IMG/VR virus record: IMGVR_UViG_2529293214_000003
Span: 1-8,881 of that record
Reading direction: 5' to 3' (one strand)
Origin: a virus
Taxonomy: Duplodnaviria; Heunggongvirae; Uroviricota; Caudoviricetes
Length of the DNA stretch: 8,881 bases
This document shows positions 3,001 through 8,881 of the stretch, in pieces. The position numbers are program-made. Numbering within the stretch: position 1 is the first letter of the stretch; every line of letters begins with the position of its first letter.

Positions 3001-6000
3001 AGCGGAATTGAAAACGCCTCCGGCTCCAGCGTTGCCAGAACGTCGCTGGCAGTTGGCGTTAATCCACCAATCAGCAGGCCACCGATAACGCTCGCTTCGA
3101 TATCCTGTCTCATGCAATCCCCCTGTCTGCAAACTTCCCTTCCCGGACTCCCGTTAACGAGTCTTCTCTCAGCAGGTAATCAAAATCTGCCGTCCAGCCC
3201 GTGTCGTTGTCTCCGAAGTAAAACGGCTTGGCCTGATGCACAAACGCCCTGACATACGCTCTGAAACCGTCCACGTTTGGCGTTTTCAGTTGCGGGATGA
3301 TTTTCTTCAGGCGGCGTTTGCGTTTCTCGTTGACCTCAACAGCATGTGGAAGTCTGTCACCGACTTCTGTGTTGTAGGCGTTCAGGAAGGATTCGTAGTC
3401 GATTCGTTCTGCCTTGCGACGTTCAGGTTTAACCTGCCCATCGCCTCCCCCATTGGGGGGTAGGGGGGTATTATTTATATTCTTGTTAATACCTTCTTGT
3501 TCATGATGTGCGGTTGTTTGTGCGGCTTCATGTGCGCTTTCATGTGCGGCATGTTCGCTGAAATCCGCGCCATTACTGGCTTCGTCATGTGCGGCATCAT
3601 GTGCGGTTGTTTGTGCGGCTTCATGTGCGGGTGAATCGTCCATTTTTTGAGCATATTCATGGTAATTTGTGATGGTAATCACACGACCTTTTTGCTTCTC
3701 TCCATCAATGGTGATCATCCCCTCTTTCACAAAAACCTGAAGCATCCGCTCAACCTGATCGCGGCTTGCTGGCTTGCCATGCCTGTCGCATAACTGAAGA
3801 CCTAAATCAGCTGCTGTCACAACCAGTTGACCGGGTTGCAGATGCCATTCATGACCTTTGAAATTCGCTTTGTATGGCTTTCTGGTGGCATTCAGGAGAA
3901 GGTTTTCCCACAGGGTGCGAAGATAAACATCTTTCGCCCATGACTGTTTCAGAATGCTCCGGTACAACGGAATGTAACCAGTTTTCTGGTTCTCCATCCT
4001 GTTGCTCCTGCGCTCGTGTGCGGCGCTGAAATCGTAGATTTTTGCTGTATTGCTCATAACTACCTGCCTTGACGAAAGACCTTAAGAACATCGTTAAACT
4101 GACTTACGGATATGTCTTCTTTGAGCAGCTTTTCCAGAAATGCGTTTGGAATGAACGTATATCCCTCCTCTTTTGGTAGAGACGGGAGCAACGCCCTCGC
4201 CTCAGCCTTCAGAAGCTCAGTTCTGGCAACTTTCACAAAAGAGATTTGAGTTCTTTCATCAATGGAACGAAGGAAGCGCAAACGCTTAGCTTCTTTGTGT
4301 GTATCAGGTGGATTAAAGCCTTTGTTTCGCATATAATTACCTCGCTGGATGTTGTTAAAATTCCATTTGTATTTGTTCAGAACGCTCGGTTGCCGCCGGG
4401 CGTTTTTTATTGGTGAGTCCATCAAGCGCATACTTAAAAGCCCTGCTAATCGGACTGATGTCTGATGCCATTCCGAAAGCACACAAGACCGAAGCAATAA
4501 ACCTCCAGTCTGTTCTGCTTATCTTCGATTCATGACAGCCAATCATCTTTGCCAGACCGCGCTGGGTAAGCGTTGACAGGTTGATGAGTAAATCTGTTTC
4601 TGCGCGATCAACGTCACGCTGTGATAGTTTGCTGTAACTTGTTTGTTCCATTTCTTACTATTTCCATAGGTAAATAATCACTAATACTCATCTTTCGATG
4701 AGTGATTAATTAGTTACCGCGTTGTCGGCGGTGCAGATTGATAAAGAGCGGTGTTACTTATGCTGCCTGATTCGGTTTTGGAAACAGGTGTGGTAAATCT
4801 GGGCGGATTTCGTAAGCCTTGATCTGCCCTCCAGTGGCGTTAACAATGGCGGTAACTTTCTCTGGAGAGACCAACCCGCCTTTCAGCCATTTATGTACTG
4901 CTGGCTGCGTTACACCACACTTGTCGGCAAGGCGCTTTTGGCTACCGACAATTTTCAAGGCTCGTTGAATTACTAAATTCATGAGCATACCTCTTGTGGA
5001 CATTACTTATAACCAAAGATAACTCAAGTTATAAAAAATAGCAATAACCTTTGTTATTTTACTTTGGATAACCGTAGTTATAGATTTGTGGGTATGAAAA
5101 CATTCGCAGAAAGACTAAATGCAGCCATGAGCTCAGCAGGGGTGTCACAATCACAGCTTGCTGACATGGTTGGAATATCTCAGCCAGCCATACAGAAGAT
5201 GTCATCCGGTAAAACAAACGGATCTCGCAAGATGGTTGAATTAGCCAATGCTTTAAAAGTACGCCCTGAATGGCTTAGCTCAGGTATTGGTGAAATGAGG
5301 GATGGTGCACATGAAGAGCCATCGAATGTGCGTGAGTCATCTTTAAAAGCGGTGGTATGGGAAGACATAAAAAGAAACGATGACGAGTTTGTCGCATTGC
5401 CTCTTCTTAATGTTTCTCTTTCCGCCGGGAGTGGTAGCTGTGAGTTAGAGGAATCATCTGAGTTCTCTTTGGTTTTCAGAAAGTACTATCTGAAAAAGAT
5501 GGGGGTATCTGAAAGCTCTGCCAAGCTGGTTAGGGTGATAGGCCAAAGCATGGAGCCAACCCTTCACGATGGTGATGTTGTTGGAGTCAACACGCAAGAC
5601 ACCACCATCAGAGATGGTAAAACCTACGCTATTTGTCAATCTGATTTACTAAGAGTAAAGACATTAATAGCCACACCTACATCCGTGATAATCAGATCAA
5701 TAAATCGCGAAGAGTACCCTGATGAAGTAATGGATAGAGATGAGTTTCATGAAACAGTAAGGATTATTGGCAGAGTATTCTGGTCATCACATAGCTGGTA
5801 ACCAGTGGCCTGAAGAAACGTTTGGGTGAGGAGGATAGATGGCGTTCACTGACCTTGAATATCAAGCGGTCAAAAAAGAAGTTCACCAATTCATTGAAAG
5901 CATAAGGCCGCCTGAACATATCCGCAATGAACTGGATATTGTTTATAGCATCAATGACCAAACGATAGATATCGGCGAACAGCGCCCCGTGTGGCAGGGC

Positions 6001-8881
6001 AACCCAGGTGAAACAAACATCCTGCCATCAGCAAGAATCAAGTACATACGTTCTCTGGATAGATGGAAAATCTATTGGATGCGGAAGGATATGAAATGGC
6101 ATCAGTACAGTACTGAACTTTCGCTGACTGATGCGCTTGAGCTTGTGCGTGCTGACCCGGATTGCTGCTTCTTCGGATGAGTGAAGAGACATTTGGGTGA
6201 TGGATGGTCGCAGAAGTGCGGCTTTTAATGTAATCGAAGAAAAGTAATCCTTGTAAAACTTGATTTGACTGTATTGTCACAAAGAAAGGAATCAACGATC
6301 GTTTCTTGGGTCTTGATTTGTTTTGACGATCAAATTAGTATTGCCTCATCAACTGTATGAGGCTTTTTTATGCAAACCAAAAGCTACACCATCAAAGCAT
6401 TTCAGGACTTCTTACAGATGCTTCCTGAGCTTGGTATCGTCAATGATGCTACAGCCCGCAATCTCCGTGACTCTTCCCTGCGCCTTCTTACTGTTCTTGG
6501 GTCGGATTTCACCGATGCCGATATCCGTGATTATAGCGTTGCCAACTTAGCAAGTTCGTACGCAGACTCAGCAGAAAGCAAACCCTCTGAATCATCTTTG
6601 CAGGCATACAAAAGCCGGATGCAAAGTGCTATTGATAAATTTATCTCCTACCAGAATGGTGAGATTAATGTGTCAGTTGGTGATGTAAATAAAAAAAAGG
6701 AGCGTAAAAAGATGGCACCTAAGAAGAAGGCGGTAGCTGACGTACAGGTTGGTGTAAAAACATTTGAACTGCCGATTCCATTGCGCGGAGATCTTATCGT
6801 CACCATTGGCAACCTGCCTCGCGACCTGACAAAAGATGAAGCCAAGCGTATCAGTCTGATTGTGGAATCTTTTGCGATGATTGATGGCGGAACAAAAGAA
6901 TAAAGCCCCGAGGGAACGGGGCTTTTTGGGTCGGAAATATATCCAGTATTTCCGAAGTGTATGGAGGATTACCTACCGCTACACCCTTGGCAACCGCAAG
7001 CCAAGGATAGCGGTTCTCCCAACAAACTACAACCTGTTCGGGTAAACAGGCTGTATACAAAAACAGGAGAAAAGCTATGGCTCACGATGTTAATCGCGAT
7101 GACTTCATCTACGAACACGACAAGCCGGTTTATGTGCGCAGTTACTGCCGCATACGTTTCGGTGAGCTCGAACATGTTCGTCAGCACTTCCGCTCTTATC
7201 CGAGCTGCTGAAAATAACTAAATCTCAAACCCGGCCACCGAGCCGGGTTTTCTTTGCCTTACGATCCCCCCACCTAAAAAACATAACCAATTGTATTTAT
7301 TGATGTAACTCGCTAAACCATGCAGTTATGATCCCTGCCCCATCACCTTCATCCTCAACATTTACAAAAATAAAATACCTTTGTTATCCATTATTTATAA
7401 CTTATTTACCATGAATTATAAATTAAGTTATTGACCACACCTATAACCTGGGTTATCTTTAAGCCATCAGCAGGACGCTGGTAGCCAAACGGAACAGATT
7501 GGCAGGCTCTTTAACTTCGATGTGGCGCTGACAAAGCGCAAACAGATACCAAACGAGATGGGTTTGGCGGTGATGTGAATTGCAGCAGCAACGACAGCAA
7601 CCAGAAGATCAGCATCTGGCGCATCACCACCAAAGCCATTTCACATGAGGAAAATATCATGACGGTAATCGTGTACGGGAAATCAACATTCGCAGGAAAT
7701 GCCAAAACTCGCCGTCATGAGCGGCGCAGAAAGCTGGCTATCGAGCGTGATTCCATCTGCAACATCATCGATTCGATCTTCGGCACAGACAGTGAGGAAG
7801 CTGTTCAGGAAGCCCCGAGAAAGCGTTTAAGCCTTTCTGAAAAAGCAATATCACTCGGAAGCCTTCGCTGCAAGAAGTCAAAGTCAGAAGAGGTCGAGCG
7901 TAAACAGAACCGTATTTACTACCGCAAGCCACGCAGTGAAATGGGTGTGACTTGTGTTGGTCGCCAGAAAATGAAATTAGGCAGCAAACCACTTATTTGA
8001 GAGGAATTAATATGTCATCAATCCGCTTAACTACGAGAATGAAAGAGGAAATCGCTCGTAACGCTTTAATTAAGTCCGGGGTGTTCACTGAACTTGAAGA
8101 AGTAACAAAGTTAAAGAACCAGCTTGCACTTGACGCCAGAGTTATTGCGTTTGGCGGTAAAAAGAAAACTGAGGAAGTGGATCAGTTATCATCCAAGTTG
8201 GTAGCTATAAGTGAAGAACTTGGAAAGATGGGATGTTCATTTTACTCATACGATGTTAGTTCTACTTCAATTTATCTGACTGTATCTGGCAGAAGGGTTG
8301 GATGGCATTCATATGGGAAAGACGGCAACGGCAAAGATATATTGCTCCCTACTCCGATCAAAGATAAATGCATGTTTGACGCAGAACACGAAATAACAAA
8401 AAGGTTTGATGAAATCTGCGCATTGCAACAAAAACTTGAAGCCAAGAAAAAGGATATCGAATCAAATGTATGGGCTGCTTTGAACTCAGTCACAACAGTT
8501 AAGCGACTTATTGAAGTTTGGCCTGAAAGCAAAGAATTGCTACCAAAAGAAGCAGATAAAGCAAGTACAGCACTTCCTGCTTTACGGGTAGAAGATTTGA
8601 ATAAGATGATTGGACTTCCTTCCGAGGCCGCATAGTCGGCCTTTATTTTTGGCATAAACAACAGAATAAATACTGCACTGTGTATTCATTCCAACGAGTG
8701 AATACACGGAGCAATGTCGCTCGTAACTAAACAGGAGCCGACTTGTTCTGATTATTGGAAATCTTCTTTGCCCTCCAGTGTGAGGGCCTTTTTATATGCA
8801 TACCAATAACGCTTCACTCGAGGCGTTTTTCGTTATGTATAAATAAGGAGCACACCATGCAATATGCCATTGCAGGGTGGC

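Follow-up and report, generated by a model that had tools for sequence, protein, structure and literature searches.

Mosaic immunity region of a lambdoid prophage with P22-type nut sites and N RNA-binding motif beside non-P22 operators

The DNA examined here (the window) is a stretch of 8,881 nt from a tailed phage, positions 1 to 8,881 of the IMG/VR record IMGVR_UViG_2529293214_000003, and our subject is the immunity region that it contains at 4716–8000. Open reading frame (ORF) listing and family scans identify the stretch as a lambdoid early region. Genes for a DnaB-type helicase, an O-type initiator, cII and cro lie on the minus strand, and cI, three small cargo genes, N, a gene of the Nmad5 family and the start of cIII lie on the plus strand (Table 1). 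The stretch very probably comes from a lambdoid Shiga-toxin (Stx) prophage, of which it would form the early regulatory (immunity) region, put together from separately inherited modules. This reading is based on identities between sequences, the statistics of the sites, conservation among relatives and the domains of the proteins, and from these the binding of proteins to the sites, the start points of the promoters, the antitermination activity and the immunity phenotype are inferred. An earlier note on this DNA had proposed that P22-like antitermination is combined here with a different repressor specificity, and sequence comparison supports this proposal, for the N protein only in its RNA-binding half.

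A mosaic of this kind is already known. Immunity and N/nut cassettes have been swapped among lambda, phi21, P22 and related phages in the classic pattern of lambdoid modularity, and the exact sequence has been deposited and annotated, as 4716–8000 shares 100 % nucleotide identity with Escherichia phage SH2026Stx1 (MG986485/NC_049919), a Stx1-converting Traversvirus from Escherichia coli O157:H7 for which Cro, CI and N are annotated. Over the longer segment 4359–8683 the identity is 99.5 %. The SH2026Stx1 record does not annotate the operators or the nut sites, and the genome announcement is silent on both. The replication module of SH2026Stx1 is unlike the one found here, with a 458 aa DnaB that lacks an intein and a different O region, and the left part of the window (1–4770) is of the type found in the Stx2a prophage of E. 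coli O121:H19 (99.3 % identity). Neither the phage collection nor that of complete E. coli genomes contains the full stretch in one piece, the best coverage being 77 %. Hence, the whole looks as if two known prophage types had recombined and, because the O121 type (1–4770) and the SH2026Stx1 type (4359–8683) overlap at 4359–4770, the crossover would probably lie in this shared segment, which runs from cII to nutR.

When other lambdoid phages were compared with the window, each was found to be related to different parts of it. The DNA homology to P22 is confined to 4714–4769 (nutR) and 7458–7784 (from PL +1 to codon 42 of N), plus the helicase gene, and that to phi21 to 7839–8001. Homology to the Stx2 phage PA28 covers 4359–5805, that to HK639 covers 4758–5306 and 7354–7468, and the O121 prophage is related over 5784–6201 and 7228–8118 in addition to 1–4770.

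Table 1. Features of the early region, in order of position in the window
Feature	Position	Strand	Sequence	Remarks
DnaB-type helicase gene (797 aa)	720–3113	−		
cII	4355–4651	−		
Stable hairpin between nutR and cII	4680–4710	−		Possible tR1-type terminator or pause
nutR boxB hairpin	4716–4732	−	ACCGCCGACAACGCGGT / ACCGCCGACAACGCGGU	Identical to P22 (L004 4455–4471); 5 bp stem (predicted fold)
nutR boxA	4739–4750	−	CGCTCTTTATCA	11/12 positions as in P22 (CGCTCTTTACCA there); 6 nt upstream of boxB
cro (74 aa, helix-turn-helix)	4758–4982	−		Pfam YdaS_toxin/HTH_3/P22_Cro
PR (putative)	5016–5044	−		−35 TTGCTA (5039–5044), 17 nt spacer, −10 TATCTT (5016–5021); read from sequence
OR1	5019–5032		ATAACTCAAGTTAT	Perfect; over PR −10 and spacer; kept in PA28, HK639, L009/L010
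OR2	5044–5057		ATAACCTTTGTTAT	Perfect; 25 bp from OR1; between PR −35 and PRM −35 region, abutting both
OR3	5068–5081		ATAACCGTAGTTAT	Perfect; 24 bp from OR2; over candidate PRM −10
Candidate PRM −10	5079–5084	+	TATAGA	Read from sequence
cI repressor (235 aa)	5094–5801	+		Pfam HTH_3 and Peptidase_S24 (E 3e-17)
DUF3024 gene	5839–6180	+		Pfam DUF3024 (E 2e-31); PADLOC candidate defence family PDC-S43 (E 7e-42)
177 aa ORF	6370–6903	+		phrog_2602; terminator-like hairpin 6902–6925
44 aa ORF	7077–7211	+		phrog_21154; followed by terminator-like hairpin 7227–7250
Degenerate distal OL	7374–7387		AATACCTTTGTTAT	2 mismatches
Degenerate distal OL	7397–7410		ATAACTTATTTACC	Left half-site only; HK639 equivalent has 1 mismatch
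OL2	7418–7431		ATAAATTAAGTTAT	1 mismatch; abuts PL −35; position kept in PA28, HK639, L009/L010
PL	7431–7459	+		−35 TTGACC, 17 nt spacer, −10 TATCTT; promoter scan, 9/12
OL1	7443–7456		ATAACCTGGGTTAT	Perfect; over PL spacer and −10
nutL boxA	7506–7515	+	GCTCTTTAAC	10/10 positions as in P22 nutL; 9 nt upstream of boxB
nutL boxB hairpin	7525–7539	+	GCGCTGACAAAGCGC / GCGCUGACAAAGCGC	Identical to P22; 5 bp stem, GACAA loop (predicted fold)
N antiterminator (113 aa, chimeric)	7659–8000	+		Pfam N_peptide (E 8e-26)
Nmad5-family gene	8012–8635	+		Nucleotide-modification-associated
Lambda cIII thermoregulator element (Rfam)	8844–8881	+		47.7 bits; ends at the end of the stretch; cIII start codon 8857

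The antitermination cassette was compared with the immC region of P22 (NC_002371, locus L004), in which nutL, nutR, the operators, c2, cro and gene 24 are annotated. Both boxB hairpins match this reference exactly, as a 15-mer at nutL and a 17-mer at nutR, and all 18 residues of the arginine-rich motif of N (GNAKTRRHERRRKLAIER, residues 13–30) are unchanged, so that the three identities which had been given in the earlier note all hold against the P22 sequence. The nut sites are also placed as annotated in P22: nutL follows PL, and nutR separates cro from cII (c1 in P22). The 82 nt nutR RNA has a folding energy of −19.3 kcal/mol (z = −3.4), and the hairpin that lies between nutR and cII is kept in the O121 prophage and other E. 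coli prophages and absent from P22. An Rfam scan of the whole stretch at E values up to 1, with Rfam holding no nut or boxB family, gave the cIII thermoregulator as the sole relevant match.

The N protein shares 68 % identity with P22 gp24 over 79 aa and differs from it at only two of the first 42 residues. Residues 1–58 are of the P22 type and, though the alignment reaches 79, the similarity fades past approximately residue 58. Residues ~60–113 (KAISLGSLRCKK...ERKQNRIYYRKPRSEMGVTCVGRQKMKLGSKPLI) match the N protein of phi21, with 46 of 52 aligned residues identical and 92 % DNA identity over 7839–8001, and align with the C-terminus of lambda N, whereas P22 gp24 ends in the unrelated ...LLPGVALYAAGHRKSKQITAR. 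Hence, N is not orthologous to gp24 over its full length, the C-terminal third being of the phi21/lambda type, and the label ‘P22-type N’ would apply to RNA recognition only. Among the genomes with an identical cI, the P22-type N-terminal half is paired with either C-terminal type (in 113 aa and 102 aa forms), so that the two halves, RNA-binding and C-terminal, appear to assort independently.

An N protein with this phi21/lambda-like C-terminal third might lack the functional specificity of P22 N or be inactive, as residues ~60–113 are wholly unlike those of P22 gp24 and the C-terminal region of lambda N contacts RNA polymerase (the lambda N complex is PDB 6GOV). However, we consider this very unlikely. 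In N-peptide/boxB complexes RNA specificity resides in the arginine-rich motif, and here the motif and boxB are both identical to those of P22. The ORF is intact and is found unaltered in four or more other genomes and as a one-residue variant in the O121 prophages, and the natural occurrence of the P22-type motif with either C-terminal type argues for interchangeable functional modules.

Six operators sharing ATAAC-N4-GTTAT had been reported in the earlier note. Four of these are perfect, a fifth (OL2) has one mismatch, and the sixth proved to be degenerate. Because the site at 7374 has two mismatches and that at 7397 only one half-site, the set is best described as five strong sites and a degenerate distal OL and not as six equal sites. 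The four perfect sites compare with an expectation of 0.01, and none of 200 shuffles reached four; when up to two mismatches were allowed, 12 matches were found across the stretch against 3.2 expected. All of the perfect sites fall in the two intergenic control regions, where the spacing is 24–25 bp. A further sequence at 5009–5022 (two mismatches) might have been a fourth OR site. It was rejected as such because it shares 4 bp with OR1 and has no conserved counterpart in HK639. At 7383–7401, diverging half-sites (GTTAT-N9-ATAAC) are common to this phage, PA28 and HK639, and both of the parent 14 bp sites are degenerate.

The transcript start ATCAGCAGGACGC (...AGCCATCAGCAGGACGC), which follows PL, is common to the P22 and 434 annotations. 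PR has the same layout as PL and corresponds to the promoter annotated as ‘putative pR’ in HK639. The candidate PRM would start approximately 2–3 nt before the cI ATG at 5094 and so produce a near-leaderless mRNA; no Shine–Dalgarno sequence precedes this ATG, and the centre of OR2 lies at approximately −41/−42 from the predicted start. The activator site placement and the near-leaderless start of lambda PRM are similar. A cI start at TTG 5064 was rejected in favour of ATG 5094, and this TTG lies inside OR3. The arrangement as a whole is that of a lambda-type tripartite switch, with divergent cI and cro genes, three operators over PR and PRM, and operators over PL.

Relatives with matching operators, which the earlier note had suggested looking for, do exist. 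PA28, HK639 and two E. coli prophages (L009 and L010) carry this motif at the corresponding positions in OR and OL and in equal number, despite surrounding DNA that is only 70–94 % identical. In eight further genomes with an identical cI, the half-sites are constant and the central four bases vary, the OL1 variants being CCTGGG, CCTAGG, CCTAAG and CCCAGG. The presumed recognition helices are kept together with the sites, as (I/V)SQPAIQKM in cI and (T/S)QPAVHKW in Cro, and PA28 and HK639 share them with the phage studied here. In phiEt88 (SQANIQKL) and PhiR26_1 (SQAAIQKI), which are more distantly related and have altered helices, the OR sites, when examined by eye, resemble A(C/A)AAC-N4-GTTGT, and some are imperfect.

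The claim in the earlier note that these operators are unlike those of lambda, 434 or P22 stands for their sequence and specificity and fails for their architecture, which is that of the 434 class. No match to ATAAC-N4-GTTAT was found in the P22, lambda, phi21 or 434 immunity (annotated operator) regions, and there is no 434-type site (ACAA-N6-TTGT) in the stretch. The N-terminal domain of cI is closest to the 434 repressor, its best match in the PDB (E 3e-8; 1PER and 2OR1 chains), and aligns without gaps to residues 4–65 of that protein (1PER, 1RPE and 2OR1). In both phages the operators are 14 bp dyads with 4 bp outer half-sites, present as three per control region, and the PL start sequence is shared. 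They differ in the outer half-site, which is ATAA here (ATAA-N6-TTAT is exact at five sites) and ACAA in 434, in the conserved C at position 5, and in the spacing, which is 24–25 bp here and 22–23 bp in 434. The recognition helix is also different, with QPAIQK here in place of QQSIEQ in 434, where Gln28, Gln29 and Gln33 are the recognition residues, and Cro is of the P22-Cro/YdaS type, unlike that of 434. The 434 immunity specificity, ACAA-N6-TTGT together with Gln28, Gln29 and Gln33, is therefore not the one found here, and the operators appear to belong to the 434 structural class with a specificity of their own and not to an unfamiliar kind of operator. As no site of either phage matches those of the other, this phage and 434 are presumably heteroimmune.

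Could the palindromes be chance AT-rich dyads, or the sites of another factor, with the true operators lying elsewhere? The control regions are AT-rich, no experimental footprint was found in the literature, and weaker matches occur inside genes (at 1051, 2229, 5619, 6521 and 7283). However, the excess of perfect sites over expectation, their restriction to the interval between cro and cI and to the DNA just upstream of PL, and their regular spacing over promoter hexamers make this highly improbable, as does the conservation of their positions, with variable centres, in relatives whose flanks share only 70–79 % identity. Furthermore, the half-site changes to ACAAC in those relatives with differing recognition helices, and the cI domain belongs to the structurally solved 434 class, with which the 14 bp dyad geometry agrees.

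In cI, the Ala-Gly (LSAG/SG), Ser (GQSME) and Lys (RVKTL) residues align with A111-G112, S149 and K192 of lambda cI, and therefore induction via the SOS response is expected. With its S24 domain, Ala-Gly site and Ser/Lys dyad, cI conforms to the LexA/lambda-cI type of repressor, for which cleavage is predicted. Relationships to the P22 proteins are remote. The cI protein shares 31 % identity with P22 c2 over 65 aa, in the helix-turn-helix (HTH) only, and Cro, which is 85 % identical to PA28 Cro and 84 % identical to HK639 Cro, shares 33 % identity with P22 Cro (37 % over 30 aa). Hence, neither the repressor nor Cro is orthologous to c2 or cro of immC. When cI, Cro and N were aligned separately, the nearest relatives were discordant, as the earlier note had predicted for a product of module exchange, with P22 nearest for the nut sites and residues 1–58 of N and PA28 and HK639 nearest for cI and Cro.

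The same operator type is associated with a variety of antitermination systems. PA28, whose cI is 85 % identical to that found here and which has ATAAC-N4-GTTAT at the equivalent OR and OL positions, carries a phi21-type N (GTAKSRYKARREELIAERR) and a phi21-type boxB, unlike this phage. HK639, which retains the DNA-binding domain of cI (42 % identity overall), has no N and has a putL-like antiterminator RNA instead. A third boxB type (TCCCGCCGAAATGCGGGA) is found in L009 and L010, and a fourth (GGGGATGATTCGTCCCC) in another prophage (L022). Conversely, the O121:H19 Stx2a prophage has the same N (differing at one residue), nutL and nutR, and its cro, cI and operators are unrelated. Replication modules of at least five kinds adjoin an identical cI, as do several different cargo genes. 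Among 5,426 complete E. coli genomes, 163 carry the cro–OR–cI module, and 12 carry the exact junction of this OL with a P22-type nutL. The module joints fall at the PL transcript start, immediately after boxA, near codons 58–60 of N and in the cII–nutR segment.

A recent, direct transfer of the N/nut cassette from Salmonella phage P22, or from a phage closely related to it, would also be conceivable, since neither the boxB sequences nor the arginine-rich motif differs from those of P22. This has very little chance of being correct. N codons 1–42 share only 85 % nucleotide identity with P22, with 15 synonymous and two non-synonymous codon differences, and such an excess of synonymous differences indicates purifying selection and not a recent transfer from P22. 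The leader DNA and N start (7458–7784) are only 74 % identical to P22, and the homology at nutR is limited to 56 nt at 86 %. The cassette is also widespread in E. coli prophages, though the approximately 915 of 5,426 complete genomes that match at least part of a 361-base query spanning OL, nutL and the N start do not give a cassette-specific count, as many of the listed matches cover only nutL and the N start. Hence, the cassette appears to be an old relative of that in P22 that has been maintained by selection.

That the region simply carries the repressor and operators of P22 (immC), with no mosaic, which the earlier note had named as the finding that would overturn its proposal, is refuted by comparison with NC_002371 and has next to no chance of being right, as the resemblance to P22 is limited to the helicase (84–93 % amino acid identity to P22 gp12), the two nut sites and the N-terminal half of N, c2, cro and the operators are unrelated to their counterparts here, the P22 OR and OL regions include no ATAAC-N4-GTTAT even with two mismatches (the stretch was not scanned for the P22 operator consensus itself), and the P22 homology ends exactly at the PL start and just beyond nutR. 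The P22 operator consensus is of the ATTTAAG/CTTAAAT type.

The mosaic reading, in which two modules act with different specificities, suggests the following mechanism. The first module would consist of cro, OR, cI and the OL/PL operators, with CI and Cro binding the 14 bp ATAAC-N4-GTTAT dyads. Bound at O1, they would cover the −10 and spacer of PR and PL; O2, which abuts the −35 of PR and PL, would serve to activate PRM; and O3 would cover the PRM −10, as in the lambda arrangement. RecA-stimulated self-cleavage of CI at Ala-Gly would then lead to prophage induction. In the second module, the N/nut cassette, N would bind the nutL and nutR boxB through the P22-identical arginine-rich motif and, together with the host Nus factors, would allow RNA polymerase to read through the early terminators. 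The repressor specificity would thus be non-P22 and the RNA-recognition specificity P22-type, with N itself a recombinant of a P22-type RNA-binding half and a phi21/lambda-type, polymerase-binding C-terminal part. The joints between modules would lie in short sequences that are common to many lambdoid phages, namely the PL start ATCAGCAGGACGC, boxA and the cII–nutR segment.

A number of points weigh against this reading. PR matches the promoter consensus at only 8 of 12 positions and falls under the threshold of the promoter scan, PRM is proposed purely from its layout, and the identity of the third OL site is ambiguous, as it could be either 7374–7387 or 7397–7410. Given its phi21/lambda-type C-terminus, N cannot be assumed to make the same contacts with host factors and polymerase as P22 N. 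No experimental account of the ATAAC-N4-GTTAT operator specificity, be it of binding, footprint, immunity or antitermination, was found in the literature; that on Stx-phage operators concerns 933W and others that are not of this type, that on HK639 and SH2026Stx1 consists of genome announcements or passing mentions, and that combining boxB, P22 and Shiga toxin held nothing relevant. Finally, the RefSeq record for the SH2026Stx1 CI (YP_009907967.1) describes a protein of 189 aa without an HTH. This protein was placed in ‘Clade V’ of the Stx-phage CI proteins and reported to lack an HTH in a study which emphasised that CI types and replication modules are combined in a mosaic fashion and in which the operators and N/nut were outside the analysis (Fagerlund et al. 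2022, PMC8951638). The reported absence probably arises because the RefSeq start is an internal ATG at 5232. Starting at ATG 5094 restores the HTH_3 domain, and exactly this 235 aa protein has been called in 239 assembly blocks, so the short RefSeq CI looks like a start-codon (annotation) artefact.

ATAAC-N4-GTTAT together with SQPAIQK in cI and QPAVHKW in Cro is likely to constitute a natural immunity specificity of the 434 structural class, so far uncharacterised by experiment (ATAA for ACAA, and Pro for Gln29). Approximately 3 % of the complete E. coli genomes have it, Stx phages among its carriers, and its natural partners comprise four or more boxB/N types as well as a put RNA; the published absence of the HTH would then be an artefact. 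If this is correct, these phages would provide a ready-made series for studying the evolution of repressor–operator specificity and of module joints. Mapping the operators, promoters and nut sites of the ‘Clade V’ immunity type helps to predict homo- and heteroimmunity and induction of the prophages of Shiga toxin-producing E. coli, corrects the published absence of an HTH in the SH2026Stx1 CI, and locates the recurrent recombination joints at PL +1, boxA and mid-N. The wider significance is small, as this is classic lambdoid module exchange, and the gap that remains concerns the characterisation of the operator specificity and does not amount to a new kind of system.

Three small cargo genes lie between cI and OL. 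The DUF3024 gene begins 37 bp after cI, in the slot occupied by rexAB in lambda, and in other genomes with an identical cI this slot contains P63C, an SDH_protease-like gene, or HipA_2 with DUF3037. The 177 aa and 44 aa ORFs, for which PADLOC gave no match, follow in a moron-like layout. At the 3′ end of cII, 4359–4417 is 95 % identical to lambda, with an oop-type terminator hairpin at 4379–4406 on the plus strand, opposite to cII, and a CII-box-like TTGC-N6-TTGT at 4628–4641 on the same strand is a candidate PRE.

The DnaB-type helicase includes a 339 aa intein with a LAGLIDADG homing-endonuclease domain, inserted at ~1494–2510 within the Walker A motif (between GMGK and T); it starts with Ala and ends with His-Asn, which is followed by Thr. 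This intein is absent from P22 gp12 and from the SH2026Stx1 helicase, and the O121 copies of the helicase are called as three pseudogene fragments by PGAP. The identical helicase protein was found in 508 assembly blocks, also beside other immunity modules, and all six of the contexts examined are lambdoid prophage regions, five of them with an Stx-type toxin gene (RIP domain) nearby. The O-type initiator gene contains tandem 12 bp repeats (TCATGTGCGGCT-like) at 3519–3630 on the minus strand, encoding a repeated HEAAQTTAH-like peptide, that are probably ori iterons. At the other end of the window, the Nmad5-family gene directly follows N and is interrupted by an IS3 element in the O121 prophages.

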